Made by a program: the position numbers and the translations under genes. From a virus: a DNA stretch of 23,483 nucleotides. Shown here in pieces: positions 1 through 23,384 of this stretch. The stretch lies in UHGV virus genome UHGV-0227276. One strand, 5' to 3'. Under the pieces are notes generated by a model. It did no database searches and was not told the origin of the DNA. It saw only the letters and a program-made list of their open reading frames with translations. Each line of letters starts with the position of its first letter. Position 1 is the first letter of the stretch.

Positions 1-20
1 GAGGCACCGACGCAGATCAT
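1..20 (-). CDS. 5' end (about 6 codons) of the gene downstream of T, at the position of P2 tail gene U; continues beyond the window
   Basis: ATG at 20-18 on the minus strand overlaps the T stop codon as ATGA; too short to assess by sequence. Confidence 0.2.
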
Positions 21-2926
21 CATTCAGACGCAGCCAGGACAAAGTGCGCAGGATATTGCGCGGGACGTGGCACGCCAGCTTGATGAACGTGAACGCAGGC
101 TGCGGCAGCAACGCCCATCATTCCGGCAACAACGGCAGCCAGTGCAGCGGTATTTCTCCGGCTGGTCACATTTGCCGGGCCGTTAACAATTTCCGGCCCG
201 TTTTCACCGACGATGCCAAACTGCCCGCGCGGGATATACCCGCCGCTGTCATACATCCCCGCAAAGCCATATCCCCATGATGGAAAACCACCCGATGGCA
301 TCATCACTTTACCGTCTGCATTCACCGTCGCAGGTTGCTGACGCGTCACGCTTTCCGGCAGTTTTGCCTTTGCGGCCTCTTTACTGACAATGCCGAGCTT
401 CTCCAGCAACCAGGAAACGCCGGATTTCAGGGAGTCCAGCGGATGCATGACCATATTCAGCCCTTCCGCCAGTGCCTCCCCGAATCGCCGCCCCATTGCC
501 GCTGCGCTCTGCAGTTCGGCAGAGGTCGACTTAACGGGCGTCAGCAGATCAGTAAACCAGCCCCACAGCGCCTGCACTTTGTCGCCAATCCACTGGAACA
601 CGGGCTTAAGCGGTTCGAACGCTGCACTGATGGGACCTGCCGCCGCTTTGAATCCTTCCACCACGCCACCGAGAAATGCGGTGATAGGTTGCCAGTATTT
701 CCAGACAACCAGCGCCACGCCCGCCAGTGCAGTAACCACAAGACCTATCGGACTGAGCAGAGCACCTAACAGACCAGATATGGCATACAGGGCAACGCGC
801 AGCATCGCCAGCGAACCGGATGCCAGCACACGCAGCACCGTACCTGCGGCGGTCAGTCCACCGCGCAGTATCGCCAGAGGATTCATAAACATCACAGCAA
901 CAGCACGTAAACCGGATAATCCAGACCGCAAAAGTGCAACCGGCGCACCTGCTACAGTTTTCAGGACATTTCCCGTCAGTGATGCCGTGCGGCGCAAAGA
1001 CGACAACGGCGCAGTAAGTAAACCCGCAGCATTGCCCGATGAAGCAAGCCCGCGTCGCAGCAGTGCCAGTGGTGCGCCAGCCAGCCAGGACAACGCGTTG
1101 CTGGTTCGAGTTACTGCTGCCGTAACGGAAGGTAACGTTTTGATACCCAGCACAGAGAATCCCAGACGGATGACTGCCAGCGGCCCCAGCACTGCAGCCA
1201 GCGCCACCGCTAAGGTGCCGAGGCCCACTGTCACAGCAGCCACAACCGCTGCTACTTTCATCAGTGTGCCCGTCAGTTCCGGGTTAGCTTCCACCCAGCG
1301 GCGCAACGCCCCCGTGACGCTTTTCACCGTGTACAGAATATCCATCAGCGGCTGGCGCAGCGTTTCGCCCAGGCTGCTGAAGGTGTTCTGCGCTCCGGTT
1401 TTGACCAGCAACCACTGAGCAGAAAGTGAATCCTTGTTAATGTCGGATTCTTTCTGCATGGAGCCAAGCGCATCATTGCCCGCTGTCAGTTTTAACTGAC
1501 GCTGCAGTTCCGGCAGGTTGTTTGCCAGTTTCGCCGCGTCATCGCCAAACTCTTTACCAAACAACATAGTCATGGCAGACAGGCGCTTGTCCTGCGGCAG
1601 CGCGTTTACCTTCTCCAGCACGCGCTGGATGGTTCCCATCGCATCCTTCGTCATCTGCTTTTCAATCACTTCAGGATTGAGTTTCAGCAGATTCATCCCT
1701 TCAAAGAAACTCTTGCTTTGCATGGTGGCAATGGACAATTCACGCACCATCGCGTTTGCTGCACTGGCTGCAACCTCTGGCGCAGCGCCCAGTGTCAGGA
1801 AGGTGGAACCCAGCGCCGCCGCTTTACGATAATCCAGACGGTCAGCCACACCGCCCAGACGTTGCATCACATCAATGATGTCTGCCCCTTTCGACATGGC
1901 GTTATCATCCAGATAGTTCAGCGCATCACCGAGCTGTTCAATATTGCGGGTGGGGATTTTGTAGAGCTGGGCGATTTTCCCCAGACTTTCTGACAGTTCA
2001 TCCGCTGGCAGCTCAAAGGCTGTTGCCGCCTTTGCTGCCGTACTGGCGAAGGCCAGCAGGTCACGTTTCTGATCTTCCCAGCTGTCGTCAGGGTTTGCGA
2101 CGTTCATGCGCGCACCACCTTCAACCAGTGCAGCGAAGTCCACCGCACCGTTTTCCATCGGCAACTGTTCGCTGGCAGCCTTGATGGCATCCTGCATTTC
2201 ATAAAAACGTGCAGTGCGGTTGCCATTATCGTCACGCAGACCATTGACCTGCTTTGCCACACCTTTCATGGCATCTTCCATGCTGGTATAGCTTTTTACT
2301 GCCGCCATCACTGGTGCACCCATTGCCAGCCCTGCAGCCGTGGTGGTGGCTCCGGCACCTGCAATACGATCACGCACCTCCAGCGAACGGGCATAACTGG
2401 CACGCGCTGCATTCATCCTGCGCTGAGCTTCCCCCAGTCGCTTCAGCCGCGCCTCCTGTTTCGAAAGTTCCTGGTTATAACGTGATGTTTCACGGGCTAA
2501 ACGGGCAGTTGCTCCCGCATCGTCTTTCGCAGAAATTCCCGCCCGGTACAGTTCAGCACGCACAAGCGCCGTCTGCCGCTGCAGCTTTTTCTGGCGTTCT
2601 TCCAGGCGCTGAACAGCCAGCCGTTGACGGCCCAGAGCAACAACCTGACGTTGCGAAGGCGGCCCCATCGCTCCCAGTTCCTGACTGAGCAAATTTGCAC
2701 GCTGGCGGGCATAGTTCAGCCTGTCGCCTAATTTCTGATTTTCTGCCTGCAGCTTTCGGAAGCTGTCCAGACTGCTCCCGGCCTGATCAAGCTGCTTTAT
2801 TGCATCGCGGGATTTTTTGACAGCAGCAGCCAGTTCTCTTGAACTGGCCTGCGCAGATCGAAATGGGCGGGTGAGCTTGTCAACCGCATTAAGAATGACC
2901 TGCAGACGCAGGTTGTTATCACTCAT
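20..2926 (-). CDS. T: tail tape measure protein (P2 gpT-like), 968 aa
   Basis: Very long ORF directly downstream of E/E'; coiled-coil-like N-terminal half rich in A/Q/R/L, central hydrophobic Gly/Ala/Leu-rich stretches; position matches the P2 FI-FII-E-T-U-D operon. Confidence 0.9.
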   Translation of the reverse strand: MSDNNLRLQVILNAVDKLTRPFRSAQASSRELAAAVKKSRDAIKQLDQAGSSLDSFRKLQAENQKLGDRLNYARQRANLLSQELGAMGPPSQRQVVALGRQRLAVQRLEERQKKLQRQTALVRAELYRAGISAKDDAGATARLARETSRYNQELSKQEARLKRLGEAQRRMNAARASYARSLEVRDRIAGAGATTTAAGLAMGAPVMAAVKSYTSMEDAMKGVAKQVNGLRDDNGNRTARFYEMQDAIKAASEQLPMENGAVDFAALVEGGARMNVANPDDSWEDQKRDLLAFASTAAKAATAFELPADELSESLGKIAQLYKIPTRNIEQLGDALNYLDDNAMSKGADIIDVMQRLGGVADRLDYRKAAALGSTFLTLGAAPEVAASAANAMVRELSIATMQSKSFFEGMNLLKLNPEVIEKQMTKDAMGTIQRVLEKVNALPQDKRLSAMTMLFGKEFGDDAAKLANNLPELQRQLKLTAGNDALGSMQKESDINKDSLSAQWLLVKTGAQNTFSSLGETLRQPLMDILYTVKSVTGALRRWVEANPELTGTLMKVAAVVAAVTVGLGTLAVALAAVLGPLAVIRLGFSVLGIKTLPSVTAAVTRTSNALSWLAGAPLALLRRGLASSGNAAGLLTAPLSSLRRTASLTGNVLKTVAGAPVALLRSGLSGLRAVAVMFMNPLAILRGGLTAAGTVLRVLASGSLAMLRVALYAISGLLGALLSPIGLVVTALAGVALVVWKYWQPITAFLGGVVEGFKAAAGPISAAFEPLKPVFQWIGDKVQALWGWFTDLLTPVKSTSAELQSAAAMGRRFGEALAEGLNMVMHPLDSLKSGVSWLLEKLGIVSKEAAKAKLPESVTRQQPATVNADGKVMMPSGGFPSWGYGFAGMYDSGGYIPRGQFGIVGENGPEIVNGPANVTSRRNTAALAAVVAGMMGVAAAACVHVHQAGVPRPAQYPAHFVLAASE

Positions 2927-5241: not shown

Positions 5242-5751
5242 TTAAATTTCTGGTAGTTTGGGCCAGTTAATATCAGGGGCTGTGCTGATATCTATTGCTG
5301 CTACCACGTCGATATAGTCAAGAACGGAATCGAGCTTTACTGTTTCTTCCGCAGTTAATTTTCTTCCCGCCTGCAATTTTAGTTGAATCAGAACAATGGA
5401 AGACATGGCATCATCAATCAGTGACTGGCGTTGCAGTTCAGCCCCTTCCACTGCTGCGTTATGTTGCGCTTTGGTATCCGTCACCCATTTCTCACCATCC
5501 CACTTATCGTATGGTGTTAACGGAGCAATAGTGGTTGTCTTTTCAGGGTAATCTCCCGGCACTGTGATTTCTTTTGAGTCCCCCGTTTCGGTGTTATAGA
5601 CGATTTCACCGCGATGGTCTGGCACATATTCCCATGATCTCAAATCCAGAGTTCGACAAGACACATAACCTGACTTATATGAACCAGGAGCATCTAAACA
5701 CGCTCTGATTCCATCACCAACGCTACATACACGAGGGAGTATTGGTAACAC
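5242..5751 (-). CDS. G: tail fibre assembly protein (Tfa/gpG-like), 5'-rearranged: residues 18-169 are Tfa-like, the first 17 codons derive from an inverted segment
   Basis: C-terminal ...TAEETVKLDSVLDYIDVVAAIDISTAPDINWPKLPEI and central SWEYVPDHRGEIVYN resemble lambda Tfa as I recall it; codons 10-16 of the annotated N-terminus are encoded by a 20-bp inverted-repeat copy. Confidence 0.7.
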   Translation of the reverse strand: MLPILPRVCSVGDGIRACLDAPGSYKSGYVSCRTLDLRSWEYVPDHRGEIVYNTETGDSKEITVPGDYPEKTTTIAPLTPYDKWDGEKWVTDTKAQHNAAVEGAELQRQSLIDDAMSSIVLIQLKLQAGRKLTAEETVKLDSVLDYIDVVAAIDISTAPDINWPKLPEI

Positions 5752-5812
5752 AGGTGGGAGCGAAACCCGTCCACGAAATATTGCATTTAACTATATCGTG
5801 AGAGCTGCGTAA
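5723..5812 (+). other. displaced 3' end of tail fibre gene H (29 codons plus TAA), on the opposite strand to H
   Basis: Plus-strand frame continues from the repeat (LIPSPT) into LHTRGSIGNTGGSETRPRNIAFNYIVRAA and ends TAATG, overlapping the start of the Tfa N-terminal fragment. Confidence 0.55.
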
Positions 5813-5952
5813 TGGATAAAGCCGTATTAAATAGCGAACTTATTGCCACGAAGGCGGGGAATATTACCGTCTATAACTATGATGGTGAAACACGGGAATA
5901 TATTTCTGAATCAACTGAATATCTTGCTGTTGGCGTCGGTATTCCCGCACAT
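5812..5952 (+). pseudogene. detached 5' fragment (47 codons) of the tail fibre assembly gene, on the opposite strand to G
   Basis: MDKAVLNSELIATKAGNITVYNYDGETREYISESTEYLAVGVGIPAH resembles the Tfa N-terminus (lambda Tfa ...[32 protein letters not shown], from memory); joining it to G codon 18 onward restores an in-frame 200-aa Tfa. Confidence 0.6.
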
Positions 5953-7489
5953 TCGTTGGTGATGGAATCAGAGTCCCTCCGGAATCGGCAGCATCAAGCC
6001 CCCGGCCTTGCGTATATGCTTTTCTGAAGATTGCCGCCAGTTCCCATTCCTCTTTTGAATCATACCCATCGTTGGCTACAACCATATGGCGGTGTTTTTC
6101 CAGCATTCCAGCCTGAAGGCTCAATAAAGCACGCCCAGCATCAATACCACGCCCATCATCCCAGCCACGAATAAACTCACCACGTAAATCAGGCAATTTA
6201 TTTGTCGGATAAACCTTTGCCAGTTTGGGATATTCTTCAGCCGAAAAAGCCGCTCCGTTGCATTTCAGCCAGCCTGTCGGTGGAGTGGCAGAAGGCCACG
6301 GAACAGGGACACCAACAGGTAATGCAGAGCCATCCCCTAAACCAAGATAATCAAGAACGCCCTGTGCGCTGGGCCTGCTAAGAATGGTACGCCCAACACT
6401 TGTCAGTGCAGTTAAGGCAGCTCGATCTTCCCCTGTAAAATAAGGGAGTTTATCTTTTGATGTAGAAAGCCCTGCCAACGCCGTTAAAGTAGCATCCTTT
6501 GGCTGCTTCCCCGCAAGGGAGTTAGTTATTGTCGTGGCAAAGTTCGGATCATTCCCCAGCGCCGCTGCCAGTTCGTTCAGCGTATCCAGTGCCGCAGGTG
6601 CAGAACCCACCATTGCTGCAATTGCCGATTTCACAAAAGCGGTAGTGGCAATCTGTGTATTGTTGACCGACTGCGCCGCCGTGGGAGCTGTTGGCGTTCC
6701 GGTGAGTGCCGGACTCGACAGCGGCGCTTTTTGTGCCAGTGCATTGTTAATGGTGGTACTGAATTTCGGATCATTGTTAATGGCTGCGGCTATTTCTTTC
6801 AGCGTGTCCAGGGTGGCTGGCGCACCATTAATAAGAGCCGTCAGAGCCGCCTGAACAAACGCGGTGGTCGCAATCTGCGTGGTGTTATTCCCTGCTGCTG
6901 GCGTTGGCGCTTTGGGTGTCCCGGTAAACGTCGGACTTTCTTTGGGTGCATACTGTGAATGCGGGTCCGGTGCGGCAAGATGTTTTGCCATCAGGTCATC
7001 CACGTACACCTTCAGCTCCAGTACCTTATCATCCACATACTTGCGGGTTGCCAGCACGACGGCAGGGTCGATTTTCAGGGTGATATTGTCCGTGCTGCTG
7101 GTTATCAGCACCATGCGCACGGTCTGGGTACGTCCGCTGCCTTCAGCCAGTTGCGGCTTATAGCTTTCCGGGCAGTTTCCCACGGCAATCAATGCCCCGG
7201 ACTCATCAAACAGGCCCACTTCACGTATCCACCAACCGCCCTCGTTTTCAGGGATCACCTGTTCAGCAATAATCTGGCTGCTGTTCTGCGGGTCGATATA
7301 GAGCATATTCAGCGCAGCCCGGCGTTTCTCATTTACCAATGCTGTCTGCTTGGCGTCCGGCGTTGGCAATGTTCCGCCGCCATCGCCGACCGCCATATGG
7401 GTAATTTTTAAAGGCACACCGAGCGCGGCGGCGCTGGCAAGTTTCGCCGCGCCAATATCCGTCAGCAGGGTATAAAATTTTGTGCTCAT
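5864..7489 (-). CDS. H: tail fibre protein (P2 gpH-like), 541 aa; last 29 codons are antisense of the detached tfa fragment
   Basis: N-terminus MSTKFYTLLTDIGAAKLASAAALGVPLKITHMAVGDGGG; internal tandem repeats; C-terminal WLKCNGAAFSAEEYPKLA...LPDLRGEFIRGWDDGRG tail-fibre domain; start overlaps the I stop (ATGA). Confidence 0.85.
   Translation of the reverse strand: MSTKFYTLLTDIGAAKLASAAALGVPLKITHMAVGDGGGTLPTPDAKQTALVNEKRRAALNMLYIDPQNSSQIIAEQVIPENEGGWWIREVGLFDESGALIAVGNCPESYKPQLAEGSGRTQTVRMVLITSSTDNITLKIDPAVVLATRKYVDDKVLELKVYVDDLMAKHLAAPDPHSQYAPKESPTFTGTPKAPTPAAGNNTTQIATTAFVQAALTALINGAPATLDTLKEIAAAINNDPKFSTTINNALAQKAPLSSPALTGTPTAPTAAQSVNNTQIATTAFVKSAIAAMVGSAPAALDTLNELAAALGNDPNFATTITNSLAGKQPKDATLTALAGLSTSKDKLPYFTGEDRAALTALTSVGRTILSRPSAQGVLDYLGLGDGSALPVGVPVPWPSATPPTGWLKCNGAAFSAEEYPKLAKVYPTNKLPDLRGEFIRGWDDGRGIDAGRALLSLQAGMLEKHRHMVVANDGYDSKEEWELAAIFRKAYTQGRGLDAADSGGTLIPSPTNVREYRRQQQDIQLIQKYIPVFHHHSYRR
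6470..6934 (-). repeat. diverged tandem duplication of about 76 codons inside H
   Basis: PTFTGTPKAPTPAAGNNTTQIATTAFVQAALTALINGAPATLDTLKEIAAAINNDPKFSTT... is followed by PALTGTPTAPTAAQSVNNTQIATTAFVKSAIAAMVGSAPAALDTLNELAAALGNDPNFATT... Confidence 0.7.
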
Positions 7490-9959: not shown

Positions 9960-9977
9960 TGTTCTGCATATGGCACA
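9960..9977 (-). promoter_or_regulatory. candidate Ogr-type late-promoter site (TGT-N12-ACA) for the V operon
   Basis: TGT tctgcatatggc ACA dyad about 55 bp upstream of the V start; shares the ATGGC-ACA half with the FI site. Confidence 0.4.
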
Positions 9978-10701
9978 ATTTACATGTAAAATGGAAAAAT
10001 TAATGGCTAATAAATCTTCCTTTACCACTAAAAAAAATGACATTAAACCTGATCCGATAATTGCAATATTAGAGAAAAGAGCCAAATCAGCCCGAATCAC
10101 CATGCTTGTTTTTATCTACTTAATATTTACAGCTATGTTGCTTGTCTTTAGTGGCGTAGTAATGATGAAATCAAAAAATGACAACCCTTTCAAATCTTTC
10201 ATTAATATGCTTTATACTCCAAATGGAGTTGATTTTAGTAATTTCATTCCCAAAACCTCCCAAAACAATATCACATTACCTCTAAAAAAAGAGGAAAAAA
10301 GAGTAGAGGAAGGGACAAATCAAGACGAATTGGAACAATTCGTAAAAAGCATAAACATTAAGTCAAGAATAATGGATTCATATCTTTCATGGAAAAGCCC
10401 ATCACAAGAACTAGCAGAATCTGTTGCATCGATAGTGATTAGCCTAACGCTCTTAATTTTTGTCGGCTTCGTGATGAAAGCATCAATAATGTTTATTAAA
10501 TATCACATGCAGATTGGGAATGATTATGATAACCAAAAAATAGCCTATTTATTAAGCAAAGGAGATATTGATGTTTTCGAAAAAACATTAGGCTGCTTAA
10601 GAACACATAATATCACATTCGAAAAAACTCCGAATTTACCTCAAGAAAAAATAATTGATGGCTTAATAAATGCCTTGAATATATCAAAGAAAAACCAATA
10701 A
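9970..10701 (+). CDS. hypothetical two-transmembrane-helix protein (AT-rich moron between V and S), up to 243 aa; start uncertain (alternatives 9991 or 10003)
   Basis: Only plus-strand gene in a minus-strand late block; strongly AT-rich; predicted TM helices ITMLVFIYLIFTAMLLVFSGVVMM and VASIVISLTLLIFVGFVMKASIMFI; annotated first ATG overlaps the V promoter dyad. Confidence 0.6.
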   Translation: MAQFTCKMEKLMANKSSFTTKKNDIKPDPIIAILEKRAKSARITMLVFIYLIFTAMLLVFSGVVMMKSKNDNPFKSFINMLYTPNGVDFSNFIPKTSQNNITLPLKKEEKRVEEGTNQDELEQFVKSINIKSRIMDSYLSWKSPSQELAESVASIVISLTLLIFVGFVMKASIMFIKYHMQIGNDYDNQKIAYLLSKGDIDVFEKTLGCLRTHNITFEKTPNLPQEKIIDGLINALNISKKNQ

Positions 10702-16313: not shown

Positions 16314-18080
16314 ATGAACACCACACTGACACCCGCAGATCTCGATCCCCGTCGGCAGGCCATGCTGCTGTACTTTCAGGGATACCGCGTAGCCCGCATT
16401 GCTGAAATGCTGGGCGAGAAAGTTGCAACCGTTCACAGCTGGAAAAAACGCGACAAGTGGGGTGACTATGGGCCGCTGGATCAGATGCAGCTCACCACCG
16501 CCGCACGCTACTGCCAGCTCATTATGAAGGAGCACAAAGAAGGGAAAGATTTCAAAGAGATTGACCTGCTGGCGCGCCAGTCGGAGCGCCATGCGCGGAT
16601 CGGCAAGTTTAACAATGGCGGCAACGAAGCCGACTTAAACCCTAACGTCGCCAACCGCAACAAAGGCCCGCGCCGTCAGCCGGAAAAGAACGTTTTCACC
16701 GATGAACAGATTGAGAAGCTGGAAGAAATCTTCCATTCCTCCATGTTCAACTACCAGCGCCACTGGTGGGAAGCCGGAAAAACCAACCGCATCCGCAACC
16801 TGCTGAAGTCACGCCAGATCGGCGCGACCTTCTATTTTGCCCGTGAAGCCCTGATTGACGCCCTGCTAACCGGGCGTAACCAGATTTTCCTTTCCGCCAG
16901 CAAGGCTCAGGCCCACGTCTTTAAGCAGTACATCATCGACTTCGCCAAAGAAGTGGAGGTGGAGCTGAAAGGCGATCCGATGGTGCTTCCTAACGGGGCC
17001 ACGCTGTACTTCCTCGGCACCAATGCCCGCACGGCCCAGAGTTACCACGGCAACCTGTATCTGGATGAATATTTCTGGATACCGAAATTCCAGGAGCTGC
17101 GCAAAGTGGCTTCCGGTATGGCTATTCACAAAAAATGGCGACAAACCTATTTTTCCACGCCATCCAGCCTGACACACAGTGCTTATCCGTTCTGGTCCGG
17201 TGCGCTGTTCAACCGAGGGCGCAACAAAGCCGATAAGGTGGACATCGACCTGTCCCACAGCAATCTGGCCCCCGGCCTGCTGTGCGCAGACGGGCAGTAC
17301 CGCCAGATAGTCACTGTGGAAGATGCGGTGCGCGGCGGCTGTAACCTGTTCGACCTCGACCAGTTGCGCATGGAGTACAGCCCGGACGAATACCAGAACC
17401 TGCTGATGTGTGAGTTCGTGGACGATCTCGCGTCTGTGTTCCCACTCAGCGAGCTGCAGGCGTGCATGGTGGACAGTTGGGAAGTCTGGACCGACTTTCA
17501 TGCACTGGCCCTGCGCCCGTTTGGCTGGCGCGAAGTGTGGATCGGATATGACCCGGCGAAAGGTACGCAGAACGGCGACAGCGCCGGATGCGTGGTGGTG
17601 GCGCCGCCAGCCGTGCCGGGCGGTAAGTTCCGCATTCTTGAGCGTCACCAGTGGCGCGGAATGGACTTCCGCGCCCAGGCTGACGCCATCAAAAAACTGA
17701 CCGAACAGTACAACGTGACCTATATCGGTATCGACTCAACCGGCGTTGGTCACGGGGTTTACGAGAACGTGAAAGCGTTTTTTCCTGCCGTCCGGGAGTT
17801 TGTCTACAACCCCAACGTTAAAAACGCCCTGGTACTCAAGGCCTACGACATTATCAGCCACCGCCGTCTGGAGTTTGACGCCGGACACACCGACATAGCG
17901 CAGTCCTTTATGGCAATCCGTCGCGCCACCACCGCCAGTGGCAACCGCCCGACCTATGAAGCCAGCCGCAGCGAAGAAGCCAGCCATGCCGATCTGGCAT
18001 GGGCAACAATGCACGCACTGTTTAACGAACCGCTGCAGGGCGAATCCGCCAATACCAGCAATATTGTGGAGATTTTTTGA
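16314..18080 (+). CDS. P: terminase large (ATPase) subunit P (P2 gpP-like), 588 aa
   Basis: MNTTLTPADLDPRRQAMLLYFQGYRVARIAEMLGE...; size matches P2 gpP; followed by the portal gene with ATGA overlap. Confidence 0.9.
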   Translation: MNTTLTPADLDPRRQAMLLYFQGYRVARIAEMLGEKVATVHSWKKRDKWGDYGPLDQMQLTTAARYCQLIMKEHKEGKDFKEIDLLARQSERHARIGKFNNGGNEADLNPNVANRNKGPRRQPEKNVFTDEQIEKLEEIFHSSMFNYQRHWWEAGKTNRIRNLLKSRQIGATFYFAREALIDALLTGRNQIFLSASKAQAHVFKQYIIDFAKEVEVELKGDPMVLPNGATLYFLGTNARTAQSYHGNLYLDEYFWIPKFQELRKVASGMAIHKKWRQTYFSTPSSLTHSAYPFWSGALFNRGRNKADKVDIDLSHSNLAPGLLCADGQYRQIVTVEDAVRGGCNLFDLDQLRMEYSPDEYQNLLMCEFVDDLASVFPLSELQACMVDSWEVWTDFHALALRPFGWREVWIGYDPAKGTQNGDSAGCVVVAPPAVPGGKFRILERHQWRGMDFRAQADAIKKLTEQYNVTYIGIDSTGVGHGVYENVKAFFPAVREFVYNPNVKNALVLKAYDIISHRRLEFDAGHTDIAQSFMAIRRATTASGNRPTYEASRSEEASHADLAWATMHALFNEPLQGESANTSNIVEIF

Positions 18081-19114
18081 TGGGAAAGAGTAAGAAGAAC
18101 CGCGCTGCGGCGACGAAACAGATCCAGCTTAAAAGTCAAACTACAGCCGAAGCATTCAGCTTCGGCGATCCCGTTCCTGTTCTGGACCGCCGAGAACTGC
18201 TGGATTATGTGGAATGCGTACAGATGGACCGCTGGTATGAGCCGCCCGTCAGCTTTGACGGACTGGCGCGCACCTTCCGCGCTGCCGTTCATCATAGTTC
18301 CCCGATTGCAGTAAAGTGCAACATTCTGACCAGCACCTACATCCCTCACCCGCTGCTCAGCCAGCAGGCTTTTTCGCGTTTTGTGCAGGACTATCTGGTA
18401 TTTGGTAACGCCTACCTGGAGAAACGCACGAACCGCTTCGGTGAAGTTATCGCCCTTGAACCTGCCTTGGCAAAATACACCCGACGCGGGTTAGACCTGG
18501 ATACCTACTGGTTTGTGCAATACGGTATGACCACGCAGCCATATCAGTTCACGAAAGGCAGCATCTTTCATCTGATGGAACCGGACATCAACCAGGAGAT
18601 CTACGGCCTGCCCGGTTATCTTTCTGCTATTCCATCCGCCCTGCTCAACGAGTCTGCCACGCTGTTCCGCCGCAAGTATTACATTAACGGCAGTCATGCA
18701 GGCTTCATCATGTATATGACCGACGCCGCGCAGAACCAGGAAGATGTGAACAACCTCCGCAACGCGATGAAAAGCGCCAAAGGCCCTGGCAACTTCCGCA
18801 ACCTGTTTATGTACTCGCCTAACGGCAAAAAGGACGGGCTTCAGATCATCCCGTTGTCAGAAGTCGCAGCGAAAGATGAATTTCTGAACATCAAGAACGT
18901 GAGCCGGGACGACATGATGGCTGCACACCGCGTACCGCCTCAGATGATGGGAATTTTGCCGAATAATGTTGGGGGGTTTGGGGATGTGGAGAAGGCAAGT
19001 CGGGTATTTGTTCGTAATGAATTAATACCTTTGCAAAAACGTTTCGAAGAATTAAATTTATGGCTAAAAAATAATATTATTACATTCAAAGAATATCAAC
19101 TATCCCTAGACTAA
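18077..19114 (+). CDS. Q: portal (capsid) protein Q (P2 gpQ-like), 345 aa; last ~30 codons AT-rich
   Basis: MMGKSKKNRAAATKQIQLKSQTTAEAFSFGDPVPVLDRRELLDYVE...; C-terminal LIPLQKRFEELNLWLKNNIITFKEYQLSLD uses AT-rich codons unlike the rest of the gene. Confidence 0.9.
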   Translation: MMGKSKKNRAAATKQIQLKSQTTAEAFSFGDPVPVLDRRELLDYVECVQMDRWYEPPVSFDGLARTFRAAVHHSSPIAVKCNILTSTYIPHPLLSQQAFSRFVQDYLVFGNAYLEKRTNRFGEVIALEPALAKYTRRGLDLDTYWFVQYGMTTQPYQFTKGSIFHLMEPDINQEIYGLPGYLSAIPSALLNESATLFRRKYYINGSHAGFIMYMTDAAQNQEDVNNLRNAMKSAKGPGNFRNLFMYSPNGKKDGLQIIPLSEVAAKDEFLNIKNVSRDDMMAAHRVPPQMMGILPNNVGGFGDVEKASRVFVRNELIPLQKRFEELNLWLKNNIITFKEYQLSLD

Positions 19115-19119
19115 TTAAT

Positions 19120-19140
19120 AACCACCTCTATGAGGTGGTT
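19120..19140. terminator. hairpin between convergent Q and cargo gene (possible bidirectional terminator)
   Basis: AACCACCTC-tat-GAGGTGGTT, a 9-bp stem directly after the Q stop codon. Confidence 0.4.
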
Positions 19141-19161
19141 AACAAGAATAAACCTAATTAA

Positions 19162-20547
19162 TTACTCATCTACTCTGATTTTTTGTTTTTTATTATTTTG
19201 AGTTAAGACATTTATGGTAATAGATGTATACGGATGAAAGTCAGGCACTATACTTTTAACCTCTCCATTTTCAAGAAAATGATGTGCTATTGAAGGAAAT
19301 AAATCAGGATCTACAGGATATTTAGCATTAGGATTATGATACATATTTAAACCTTCTGCCCATGTTTCTGTAATATCGCCTTCTTTCACTTCAAAACTAA
19401 ATGCTGCTGGATATAATGCCTCTGGGTCATGATCATGGCAGTAACCACTCCTAAATAATCTAAGGTCACTTCTTCCAAAACCAGCCAGTTTTCCCATCCG
19501 ATTAAACTTCGATATAGTACCACTATTAGAACTAAGGACGGCCGAAATATTTTCAGACTCATCCAAGAAGAAAAAGCCTGAAGGAATTTCCTTTTTCTCA
19601 AATTGATGCGATATAATTTTCTTAGTTGCTAAACTGTAACATCCATCTTCAGATTTAACATGCTCATAGCGAATACCATAAAGATACTGCCAAAGTGCAC
19701 TATGGGACCAAATCATAGAGTTTGGTTCATGAAAATCAGCAATTGCGAAAATTAAAGGATTCCCCTTAACATGTTCTAGATCCCAGTATCGAGTTTTCTT
19801 TTTCAGTTTAGAATAGAGAGAACTTCCAAATTTAATCGGCATATAATTCTCTATTTTCTCTAGCAATTCTTCCTTACTTTTAGGTTCAGATAGCATTTCA
19901 GATGATTGATTAATATCATTCCCTGTTGGATTAACCGTTACAGCTTCAATGCAAATAGTATTACCATACTTACGTGCCACATAATCAGGGGCATTAAACT
20001 GCCTATCTAGCCAAAAGTGTTCCTCTCGTAAATATGCGAAAAGATATAACTCCCATAGCCGGGCATCAAAACCTGTTGTCTGAAACTGCTCTATAAAATT
20101 CCCGTCGACATCCTCAAAATGATTCATCATTTCCTTGATTATCCCTGTTGCAGGCGACCAGTTCGCATATTTACCAAATAATGAAAAATGATGATGAAGT
20201 TTATCTGGTGTAACTATAGGTGTGAATAAATCCATTGCTTTATAAGTTTCATCACCTTGTGGAAATACTTTTACGTTTAATTTAGTATGCTTCCGCATTA
20301 ATTTCTTTAGTTTTGCTCGTGCAGAATTCATTTCTGAAACACTAGTAAATAGGTCAATACATCTATATCTCCCACTTAAGTCTCTTGCTAAAACAATACC
20401 GCTATAATCTTCATCAATTTGATCCAATAATAGTGCCCCTAGCAGGAACTCTCTCGGACTACAGTACCACTCAAACTCATAGCCTAAAAGTTCAGTATTT
20501 GGCATTCTGGTCCAATCAACAAAAGCATTAAACCTCTCTTTACTCAT
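19162..20547 (-). CDS. hypothetical 461-aa cargo protein, AT-rich, no motif recognised; candidate accessory/defense gene
   Basis: Long uninterrupted ORF in AT-rich DNA between Q and the cos-like site; no Walker A or other motif recognisable by eye. Confidence 0.6.
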   Translation of the reverse strand: MSKERFNAFVDWTRMPNTELLGYEFEWYCSPREFLLGALLLDQIDEDYSGIVLARDLSGRYRCIDLFTSVSEMNSARAKLKKLMRKHTKLNVKVFPQGDETYKAMDLFTPIVTPDKLHHHFSLFGKYANWSPATGIIKEMMNHFEDVDGNFIEQFQTTGFDARLWELYLFAYLREEHFWLDRQFNAPDYVARKYGNTICIEAVTVNPTGNDINQSSEMLSEPKSKEELLEKIENYMPIKFGSSLYSKLKKKTRYWDLEHVKGNPLIFAIADFHEPNSMIWSHSALWQYLYGIRYEHVKSEDGCYSLATKKIISHQFEKKEIPSGFFFLDESENISAVLSSNSGTISKFNRMGKLAGFGRSDLRLFRSGYCHDHDPEALYPAAFSFEVKEGDITETWAEGLNMYHNPNAKYPVDPDLFPSIAHHFLENGEVKSIVPDFHPYTSITINVLTQNNKKQKIRVDE

Positions 20548-20634
20548 TTTTTTTATATCAAGAAAGCGTTAGCTCTGTAGTGCATGTCTATGCCGCATGA
20601 GATCGCATGATCGTTTGAGGATCGTTTTTGCTAA

Positions 20635-20659
20635 GGCCCGCCAGAACTGGCGGGCTTTT
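20635..20659 (+). terminator. rho-independent terminator-like hairpin inside the repeat-bounded segment
   Basis: GGCCCGCC-agaact-GGCGGGC followed by TTTT on the plus strand. Confidence 0.45.
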
Positions 20660-20704
20660 GCGTAGATCATGCAGGTGCATGAAAACCACTACATAAAGCG
20701 GGCA

Positions 20705-20723
20705 GGCGTGGCGGGGATACGAG
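20705..20723 (+). other. cos-like motif (resembles the 19-nt cohesive end of 186/P2), in inverted polarity relative to Q/P
   Basis: GGCGTGGCGGGGA... matches the first 13 nt of the 186 cohesive end as I recall it (GGCGTGGCGGGGAAAGCAT; P2 GGCGAGGCGGGGAAAGCAC); located between A and Q where P2-like cos lies. Confidence 0.4.
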
Positions 20724-20749
20724 CGCGCGTATTTGGTCGTTACTTAGCT

Positions 20750-20824
20750 TTTTTTTATCAATAGATTAAGCTAACTTAAGTCTTTTTAGGAAAAAATATT
20801 TTTTCGTGATGAGGTAGAAAGATG
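20750..20824 (+). promoter_or_regulatory. AT-rich promoter-like region with GAGG Shine-Dalgarno and ATG (20822), currently pointing away from the cargo gene
   Basis: AT-rich tract then GAGGTAGAAAG-ATG, reading in frame into the right-hand repeat copy (MSFLDIKKMSKERFNAFVD...) and ending after 41 codons. Confidence 0.35.
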
Positions 20825-20940
20825 TCTTTTCTTGATATAAAAAAAATGAGTAAAGAGAGGTTTAATGCTTTTGTTGATTCAAGGGCTCGTTGTTCAACCT
20901 TGCTGACGCCAGAAGCAAGTTCAGACGCCAGCAACGTTTC

Positions 20941-21174
20941 TTAATGCAGCCAGCTGTCGTCTTCCCACACCTTCTGCATAATTTTCATCACTTGTTTTCT
21001 TTCTTCGTCCAGTTGCAGTCCGGTTAGTTCCACACCGTTAGAGCTACCTTTGCGAATGCGAATTACCGTTTTGGGATACAGGGGGCGCAGATTGCGGTAA
21101 AGCTCGGATTCAAGGGCGTCCAGGGTAGACTGGCTAATCTTCTGCTCTTTATCGATCATTATTTCAATGCGCAT
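20941..21174 (-). CDS. DinI-family protein (DNA-damage-inducible protein I-like), 77 aa
   Basis: MRIEIMIDKEQKISQSTLDALESELYRNLRPLYP...IMQKVWEDDSW follows the DinI pattern (E. coli DinI MRIEVTIAKTSPLPAGAIDALAGELSRR...ILQETWESADDW, from memory); GAGGTGA Shine-Dalgarno 5 nt upstream. Confidence 0.8.
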   Translation of the reverse strand: MRIEIMIDKEQKISQSTLDALESELYRNLRPLYPKTVIRIRKGSSNGVELTGLQLDEERKQVMKIMQKVWEDDSWLH

Positions 21175-21184
21175 AAAAGTCACC

Positions 21185-21373
21185 TCAGCTGATGACATCC
21201 ATTGAGCGGTTGTATTCGTGGGTTCTGATTTTTGCCATGAGTTCATCAGTCAATTCAGAAACCCACTGCAGAGCCAGCCCCTTCTCTTCATCACTACACT
21301 CACTAGCCGCTACAAGCTTAAGAAAAAAATCAATGCGCTGGAGCTTCAAAGACTCCAAAAAATAGTCCTGCAT
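21185..21373 (-). CDS. hypothetical 62-aa protein, first gene of the LexA-box operon (possible Tum-like antirepressor part)
   Basis: GGAGGAAAG Shine-Dalgarno then ATG (MQDYFLESLKLQRIDFF...); ends 10 bp before the DinI-like start. Confidence 0.45.
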   Translation of the reverse strand: MQDYFLESLKLQRIDFFLKLVAASECSDEEKGLALQWVSELTDELMAKIRTHEYNRSMDVIS

Positions 21374-21526: not shown

Positions 21527-23137
21527 TTAATACAGGTTCCGCCACTGATCATCTTCCTGCAAACGCTGGTTCCGATAGAAGATACGCAGGCCTGCTCCTG
21601 ACGGAATACTGCCTCCGCGAAGGAGTAAATCGACCTCTTTCTCGCTGCCATCAAATCCTCTGGACTTCAGCTCATACACGAGCTGCAGTCGCTGATGGTC
21701 TGTAATTCGCTGTTTGTAGTCTTTACGCCGTTTCGGTTTCACCAGGCGTAACCTTGCTGCCAGTTCCCGGCGCTCTTTTTTGCTCATACTGTGCAGGTAA
21801 TCGTGCAACTCCTTGTCATCCATGCTGGTAATGTCCGTTCTGGGGTCCCCATCAGCTGATTTATCTTTCTCCTGTTGGTTCAAATTTTCAGCAAGGGGAC
21901 AGTTATTGCCACGAGTCCAAGGGGCGCAAGCGCCCTGGTCGGCTGCCGCCTCCTGAACGTCAACGGCTTTACGAACCATTTTCCACTTCACTGCATGAGT
22001 GCAGATCTTGCCCTCTGCAATGGGTGACCAGATGCCATAAATACGAATACCGTGATCGCCATAGGCGGTCGGCTCTTCGTTGATTTCATAAGCGGTTCTG
22101 ATGAGGTGATATTTACGGGGAACCAGTACGCCGCCCTGCTTCATGATGTAGGTGGCAAAGCAACCAGCATCAGCTGCAGCCAGAATGGCATCAAGGCGCG
22201 GGTTATCCAGTACCGGCGCACCTGCTTTTTTGTCACCCTGTTGCCTTGCCGCCTGACCAGCCAGCAATCGCAGTTCACGGTAAGCCTGACGCCCCGGAAT
22301 GCCAAAGAAGCGGAATTGCTGAACACGATGCAGAGACGCCCAGGCATTAACGTATTCAGCGTTATCACGCAGAGATTTACCCGTTTCCTTGCTGATCTCG
22401 CCAGCCAGACCACGCCCGTCAATGTTCTTACTGATATATTTCGCGATGTAGCTTGTCGGCGTTCCTTTACGCGGGTTAATCAACTCAGACTTAAAGCGCG
22501 GCCCAGTGTTATTGCCCAGCTCCTCGCGGTCTTCACGGATGGCAAACTTACGCAGTAATGCAGTGATGGCGCGGCGGTCTTTTTTGCGCATAAAACACAA
22601 CAGGTGCCAGTGAACTGTACCGTCATGATGCGGCTCAGCCACCCGCACGCCATACCAGCGCAATCCGGCTTTGTGCATCGCCTTACGAAATGCAGCAAAC
22701 ATGCCGACCAGATAGTCGCTGCTTTGTCTTACCGTCGAGTTTGTCCAGGTCGGGTTGGGTCTGCCGTTATTGAGCGTGGAATGGAAACGCGACGGACAGG
22801 TGATAGTGTAGAAAACGGCGCAGTCACTGCGCATTTCCGCGATAAGCTCCAGACCTTTAACACAGGCCATCATCTCATTGCGGCGATGCGCCGGGTTGCT
22901 GCTGCTGGCGTTTACCACATCTTCCATATCCAGCGTGTCGCCGTCTTCGTTCACCAGTTCATGAGAACGGAAAAACTCCAGCGACTTACGGCGCTGCTCA
23001 CGTTTATGCATCACGGCTTCATAGCTGACATAGGGGGATGCTTTTTTGCTGACCAGGCAGACAGCACGCAACTGCTCTTCCCGCCATTCGCAACGCATCT
23101 TCCATAATTTCCGATACCACCAGTCGGCACACAACAT
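21527..23137 (-). CDS. A: replication initiation protein A (rolling-circle initiator, P2 gpA-like), 5'-truncated in this arrangement (536 aa ORF)
   Basis: VHWHLLCF (HUH-like) and YIAKY paired-tyrosine motif; reading frame closes 16 codons upstream of the annotated start, exactly at the edge of a 52-bp inverted repeat. Confidence 0.85.
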
Positions 23138-23384
23138 ACGCGTGCCTTGATGCAGCTTGTGGTGATTTGTATGCCACCGATGACGTTAAGCCAGAAGAAA
23201 TCCGCAAGACATGGGAAAAGGTGGCAGCGGAAACCCTGCGTCTGGATGTCATCCCGCCTGCGTTTGAGCAACTCCGTCGGAAAAGAAACCGCCGTAAACC
23301 CGTGCCCTATGAACTCATTCCGGGTTCGCTGGCGCGTATGTTGTGTGCCGACTGGTGGTATCGGAAATTATGGAAGATGCGTTG
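23091..23384. repeat. 52-bp perfect inverted repeats (23091-23142 and 23333-23384) flanking a 190-bp segment inside the 5' part of gene A
   Basis: Exact reverse-complement match CGCGTATGTTGTGTGCCGACTGGTGGTATCGGAAATTATGGAAGATGCGTTG; both copies encode [15 protein letters not shown] on opposite strands. Confidence 0.9.
23143..23332 (+). other. inverted fragment of the A coding region (63 codons) lying on the opposite strand to A
   Basis: Plus frame ...[52 protein letters not shown] runs in frame into the repeat-encoded [15 protein letters not shown]. Confidence 0.45.

Follow-up and report, generated by a model that had tools for sequence, protein, structure and literature searches.

A P2-family cos site in inverted polarity, very probably within a private inversion-duplication, in an E. 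coli prophage sequence

Results

Gene neighbourhood of cos

The window, i.e. the whole stretch of DNA analysed here (UHGV virus genome UHGV-0227276; 23,483 nt), is a P2-family prophage that reads in reverse of the P2 map. On its + strand lie gene P for the terminase ATPase subunit (16314-18080) and the portal gene Q (18077-19114), which sets the polarity expected of cos. On the - strand lies a gene for a protein of 461 aa (19162-20547), which PADLOC matched to the anti-phage defence system PD-T7-1 over the full length of the profile (E 1e-195; residues 1-449 on profile positions 4-449 of 452). On the far side of a cos-like motif at 20705-20723 there is a DinI-like gene (20941-21174, - strand; PF06183, 1.3e-22, and the annotation of the identical sequence), and then a small ORF and gpA (from 21527 to 23137 and beyond, - strand). 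The motif, placed by the original prediction between A and Q where a P2-like cos is expected, indeed has DinI and gpA on one side and PD-T7-1, Q and P on the other, i.e. it lies between the A/DinI side and the portal gene as in the P2 family.

By contrast, the 1.4-kb gene between cos and Q, which had been called atypical, turned out to be a known defence gene, the cos-adjacent cargo PD-T7-1, in a documented hotspot. In P2 and 186 the gap between cos and Q is about 170 bp; Fels-2, 813R9 and 500465-1 have a gene there, a different one in each. In P2-like phages the A-Q interval adjoining cos is a known insertion hotspot for defence genes (Rousset et al. 2022, PMC9122126; Vassallo et al. 2022, PMC9519451), and PMC5694545, with reference to Dodd & Egan 1996 and Nakayama 1999, specifies the position from cosL to Q. 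PD-T7-1 is a single-gene anti-phage system, and protection on expression has been shown for the family (PMC9519451). The gene in the window agrees with this pattern, i.e. it is a lone defence gene between cos and Q with an AT-rich leader of its own, and this protein is encoded at the corresponding position in at least 14 further loci; the window copy differs from these other hotspot copies in that an inversion has severed it from the leader. Judging from these comparisons, a cargo gene between cos and Q is ordinary for the P2 family.

In two E. coli genomes with PD-T7-1 between cos and Q, an additional cargo gene was present between cos and DinI, i.e. a DUF4145 gene in MS8345 (locus L021, 2160-2900) and a gene for a hypothetical protein in H15 (locus L022, 2269-2604). 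Thus, the lineage of MS8345 and H15 has cargo on both sides of cos.

Identity of the cos motif

The + strand at 20705-20723 reads GGCGTGGCGGGGATACGAG. The record of phage 186 begins with GGCGTGGCGGGGAAAGCAT, which is annotated as cos at positions 1-19; the window 19-mer matches it at the leading 13 of 13 nt and at 15 of 19 nt overall, and it matches the P2 cohesive end, GGCGAGGCGGGGAAAGCAC, at 14 of 19 nt. In Fels-2 and in Escherichia phage vB_EcoM-813R9 the full 19-mer is the same (19/19), and it conforms to the 19-nt P2-family cohesive-end type GGCG(A/T)GGCGGGGA.... The similarity extends well beyond the overhang. The 19-nt cos cleavage region, in which the top strand of the P2 map is the + strand of the window, forms part of a 164-bp conserved cos region (20566-20729) that extends 139 bp to the A side and 6 bp to the Q side. 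Over these 164 bp the window shows 100% identity to vB_EcoM-813R9 in its cos region (ON470620.1; E 5e-78) and 93-99% identity to many Peduoviridae of Klebsiella, Salmonella and Yersinia. Among phages with differing cargo, homology stops at 20729.

Aligning the cos area to P2 and 186 was a check that the original prediction had proposed. When the window was aligned jointly with P2 and 186, both with their ends circularised, a core of ~56 bp at 20674-20729 was common to all three sequences, with the layout TGCAT.AAAACC...AAGCGGGC, followed by the overhang and then GCGCGC. This core corresponds to a 55-bp conserved cos core that passages in PMC5694545 and PMC9594776 attribute to Ziermann & Calendar 1990. 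Repeated GCATG/TGCAT motifs were observed at 20582-20615 and 20666-20681 in the A-side arm of cos at positions that are kept in P2 and 186; these repeats are candidates for elements bound by the small terminase subunit.

A 13-mer with at most 2 mismatches is expected ~0.7 times per window, and a GC-rich motif that arose by chance and is no cos site could in principle resemble the 186 end. However, the exact 13-mer occurs a single time in the window, the exact 19-mer is common to Fels-2 and 813R9 within 164 bp at 100% identity (E 5e-78), and the alignment to the annotated P2 and 186 cos sites reaches into the flanking core; a chance origin is therefore extremely improbable. The assignment of the motif as a P2/186-type cos was borne out by the 13 nt identical to 186, the 164 bp identical to 813R9 and the core aligned with P2 and 186. 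We conclude that 20705-20723 is the true cos of an E. coli prophage of the P2 family (Peduoviridae) and the Fels-2 type, at which the gpM/gpP terminase would nick in a staggered fashion to give 19-nt 5' cohesive ends.

In its flanking core and its position between the A/DinI side and Q, this cos is like those of P2, 186, P4 and Peduoviridae of the Fels-2/PSP3 type, which have 19-nt 5' cohesive ends. It differs from them in two respects that are found in the window sequence only, i.e. its orientation relative to Q and P is reversed and it is flanked by a 52-nt inverted duplication; the relatives are without this duplication.

Polarity of cos

The P2 and 186 records begin, on the top strand, with the GGCG overhang; Q/W follows shortly downstream and is encoded on the other strand. 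The GGCG strand points away from A/DinI and toward the 3' end of Q in P2, 186, Fels-2, 813R9 and 500465-1. In the window, by contrast, the GGCG strand runs from the Q side toward DinI, and the polarity is thus not canonical. When Fels-2, 813R9 and 500465-1 are turned to the orientation of cos in the window, their order is A(+), DinI(+), cos, cargo, Q(-), P(-), while the window has P(+), Q(+), cargo(-), cos, DinI(-), A(-), i.e. everything except cos is reversed. The claim that the cos polarity is opposite to that of the packaging genes was therefore upheld against all five phages.

The inverted block

The closest genome, E. coli SCU-484 (NZ_CP051744.1, locus L005), served as the reference. Window positions 95-23483 are 100.0% identical to SCU-484, although in pieces. 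Around cos, window 19001-20565 is collinear with SCU-484, the 314 bp at 20566-20879 are the exact reverse complement of L005 23400-23713 (100%), and from 20880 the window resumes at L005 23718 with flanks that are 100% identical. The window is thus made up of the reference up to 23451, the reverse complement of reference 23400-23713 and the reference from 23718 onward. At the right edge of the block 4 bp (CTCG, L005 23714-23717) were lost, and neither junction has microhomology.

The 52 nt at L005 23400-23451 are present twice in the window, once per orientation. Because the original 52 nt were kept while a reverse-complemented copy lies inside the flipped block, the two copies form a perfect 52-nt inverted repeat. 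The left arm (20514-20565) is the original copy and consists of 18 nt upstream of PD-T7-1 and its first 34 nt; the right arm (20828-20879) is an additional copy of the PD-T7-1 5' end in inverted orientation and is absent from all other sequences examined. That cos lies inside a repeat-bounded segment, as had been noted from the sequence, was thus confirmed.

Besides the duplicated 52 nt, the flipped block contains the entire conserved cos region and a 98-bp AT-rich stretch (20730-20827, + strand), which in all other genomes is directly upstream of PD-T7-1 and here points toward DinI. A promoter scan of 20350-21300, the AT-rich stretch included, found no sigma-70 consensus; from its constant position upstream of PD-T7-1, the stretch is presumed to be the promoter and leader of this gene. 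Within the cos region, a GC-rich hairpin followed by TTTT (20630-20661, + strand) aligns with the stretch of 186 that holds the terminator t95b (NC_001317), and we infer that it would be the terminator that ends the operon on the A/DinI side. A simple terminator scan passed over this hairpin because its tail has only 4 T.

The duplication created a chimeric ORF of 40 codons (20822-20944, + strand), in which the N terminus of PD-T7-1 is joined to the antisense of the region downstream of DinI. RefSeq has PD-T7-1 as 469 aa, with its start at an ATG that precedes MSKERF by 8 codons; in the window this ATG is at 20822-20824 on the + strand, while the start of MSKERF is at 20545-20547 on the - strand. 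Because the upstream ATG was moved across the inversion, only the 461-aa form of PD-T7-1 is possible in the window.

Three further inversions and three point differences

The only other structural differences between the window and SCU-484 are three more flips of the same type. Window 1-102, in the tape-measure gene (T), is the reverse complement of L005 2805-2906, and the tape-measure ORF (20-2926) encodes 968 aa rather than the 1025 aa of SCU-484. Window 5703-5956, which reaches from the tail-fibre gene, at its 3' end, into the first part of the fibre-assembly gene (H/G), is the reverse complement of L005 8605-8858; it has a 17-20-nt inverted duplication, and the length of the fibre ORF is kept (541 aa) while its C terminus is scrambled. 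The event inside gpA occupies window 23142-23384, which corresponds to L005 25929-26171 in reverse complement; ~50 nt were duplicated in inverted orientation and 48 bp were lost, and gpA, the gene for the replication endonuclease, is split so that a 536-aa ORF remains at 21527-23137. The inverted blocks are 243-314 bp, and their junctions are blunt or have 1-3 nt of microhomology. A role of the gpA nickase or the origin in the event in gene A was set aside as improbable, since the P2 origin is near the 3' part of A and the event is in the N-terminal third.

No inverted repeats were found at the breakpoints in the SCU-484 reference, and of the 40 genes annotated in the identical region of the reference, none is a recombinase or invertase. 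Site-specific recombination was rejected on these two grounds.

The window and SCU-484 have just 3 point differences in 23 kb. Two of these are private substitutions, one at 66, inside the first inverted block, and one at 5983, ~30 nt from the second; the alleles were found in 0 of 1,054 and 0 of 72 genomes with those stretches, respectively. Both are within ~65 nt of a breakpoint, for which we estimate a chance probability of about 0.001, and from this closeness we conclude that the substitutions and the flips arose in one process. The third difference is in a poly-A tract at ~10022-10029, where the window has A8 and SCU-484 has A9. A8 is a common natural allele that is present on 12 other contigs, which shows that the window is not simply SCU-484 with errors but derives from a distinct, real relative.

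With A8 an ORF of 243 aa (9970-10701, + strand) is intact; it occupies a second cargo position, which lies between the baseplate gene V and the tail/virion-morphogenesis genes. The exact 243-aa protein was found on 12 short metagenome/Logan contigs and had no PADLOC match. The shorter annotation of this ORF in SCU-484 (179 aa) may reflect a frameshift.

The arrangement in other genomes

The canonical cos strand together with a single copy of the 52-mer was present in 6 of 6 complete E. coli genomes that carry PD-T7-1 as cargo (ExPEC XM, SCU-484, S88, MS8345, H15 and 33-6), as well as in 8 of 8 further NCBI/ENA/Logan contigs that take in cos and code for an identical PD-T7-1. A search of 5,426 complete E. 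coli genomes gave 1,285 records that match 19100-21300, none of which is collinear over the region. The cos piece and the DinI flank were joined on one strand in 0 of these 1,285 E. coli records; such a record would outrank the 19% matches. In the same genomes the right-hand junction was spanned by 0 of 489 records. Moreover, both the left junction (left repeat arm to cos) and the right junction (right repeat arm to the DinI side) are absent from IMG/VR, JGI metagenomes and GTDB genomes, and no phage record has the window arrangement of the region. Likewise, none of the altered proteins, i.e. the 541-aa tail fibre, the 968-aa tape measure, the 536-aa gpA fragment and the chimeric 40-aa ORF, is on record. 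By these searches, the cos inversion is private to the window sequence.

These observations bear on whether the window could represent a distinct phage lineage with a natively reversed cos, i.e. an alternative ancestral architecture. The orientation itself speaks for such a lineage, and nothing further does. The flanks are 100% identical to those of prophages with the canonical orientation, and the flipped block brings along 52 nt of the cargo gene, which is explained only by a recent local flip; we therefore give this possibility almost no weight. Inverted polarity as a trait of a phage lineage was rejected because otherwise identical prophages are canonical and are without the second repeat copy, and because the window has three more flips in essential genes. 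Instead, the cos polarity is reversed because a local 314-bp block is flipped in one sequence only. In total, it is very probable that a genuine cos lies inside a private, unprogrammed inversion-duplication, a conclusion that applies alike to a technical and an in vivo origin.

Discussion

Does the arrangement reflect a programmed switch?

A perfect inverted repeat around ~260 bp that includes the upstream region of a gene bears a superficial likeness to a programmed inverton. In such a system the 52-nt repeats would serve as recombination sites, and flipping of the 262-bp cassette would toggle PD-T7-1 expression together with the polarity of cos; the leader, facing away from PD-T7-1 in the present orientation, speaks for such a system. 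With invertible promoter switches (fimS, hin and the gut 'invertons') the window shares a segment of ~260 bp that lies between inverted repeats and holds the upstream region of a gene. However, an inverton needs both arms in both states, and the 52-mer is single-copy in 14 of 14 other loci with PD-T7-1. Moreover, the junction of the second copy was in none of the collections searched and the other genomes have only the canonical orientation. Unlike the known switches, the window has repeats that are absent from its relatives, no invertase or recombinase in the region, and a second arm that newly duplicates coding sequence and came with the loss of 4 bp; finally, sister events of the same geometry wreck essential genes. 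Thus, a programmed switch is very unlikely.

Technical or in vivo origin

Having set aside a programmed switch, we consider that an unprogrammed inversion-duplication process would have acted four times on a sequence with almost no divergence. The inverted block, the flanking inverted duplication, the small deletion, the 0-3 nt of microhomology and the substitutions at breakpoints resemble both dupINVdel/INVdup template-switch rearrangements and the inverted chimeras of strand-displacement amplification. The geometry fits technical chimeras, such as those from strand-displacement amplification or from library or assembly errors, or sequences that curated sets exclude. It also fits replication template switching in vivo with error-prone synthesis.

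We somewhat favour a technical source, i.e. chimeric amplification or assembly, over template switching during replication in the cell. This preference is based on the extreme ratio of complex events to point changes, the uniform blocks at the scale of fragments, the rarity of blunt-joined inversions in E. coli and the lack of a counterpart in the genomes searched. On the other side, the junctions are clean and the quality of the sequence is otherwise very high (3 differences in 23 kb), which is unusual for a poor assembly, and the natural A8 allele indicates that the window is not mere SCU-484 plus noise, which keeps an in vivo origin alive.

Alternatively, four micro-inversions could have arisen in vivo in a mutational burst by template switching (fork stalling or microhomology-mediated) in a prophage that was being inactivated, in which case the inverted cos would be physically present in a chromosome. 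The dup-INV-del and INV-dup geometry with 0-3 nt of microhomology agrees with such a burst, as does the gathering of the private substitutions at breakpoints that error-prone synthesis predicts, and the A8 allele, which is missing in SCU-484, points to a real sibling strain as the source. Yet a ratio of four complex events to 1-3 point changes within 23 kb would be extraordinary for natural divergence, the events were found in no other genome or contig searched, and the narrow range of sizes (243-314 bp) resembles an artefact at the scale of fragments or reads. Moreover, E. coli is not known to possess end-joining, and it seldom gives rise to blunt-joined inversions. On balance, a burst in the cell is the less likely of the two origins.

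Consequences if the rearrangement is physically real

If the rearrangement exists in a chromosome, the cos cassette would be unbroken and might still be cleaved, with the direction of packaging reversed. Cleavage would be expected because all the conserved sequence is in the flipped block and because, as described in the older P2 literature, P2-type terminase acts on monomeric circles. The finding that cloned cos fragments are functional in plasmids (PMC9594776) leads to the same expectation. Our search of the open-access literature gave no usable text on monomeric circles as the substrate of P2 packaging or on the orientation of cos. The sister events disrupt T, H/G and A, and for this reason the prophage would not be viable and would make no particles unaided.

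PD-T7-1 would be cut off from its leader, which would face DinI, and silencing of the gene is predicted. Because the hairpin at 20630-20661 is on the wrong strand, transcription from DinI would continue across cos and enter PD-T7-1. In folding predictions this read-through RNA forms a perfect 52-bp stem over the start codon of PD-T7-1 (z -11.7). Conversely, the PD-T7-1 leader, in which the promoter is a predicted one, would drive the 40-codon ORF at 20822-20944 and antisense RNA into DinI.

A more far-reaching scenario, which we consider unlikely, is that a real burst of four micro-inversions occurred in one E. coli lineage, and that RecA could flip the cos bounded by the 52-nt repeats and thereby couple PD-T7-1 expression to packaging polarity; the segment would then be a newborn, accidental invertible element.

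Implications

The cos site is a known element, as is the hotspot with PD-T7-1, and on the evidence of the sequence comparisons the inversion is most likely an error or an accidental rearrangement and not a new phage design. The main value of the finding is in quality control, i.e. the inverted cos marks a 23-kb sequence with four local inversion-duplications that are unshared by relatives. Because they are unshared, the repeats, the truncated T, H/G and A genes and the odd gene order should not be taken as biology without support from reads. If the rearrangement is real, it would represent an unusual mutational signature in a prophage, i.e. clustered micro-inversions with substitutions at their breakpoints, and it would provide a natural test of whether a P2-type cos functions in either orientation.
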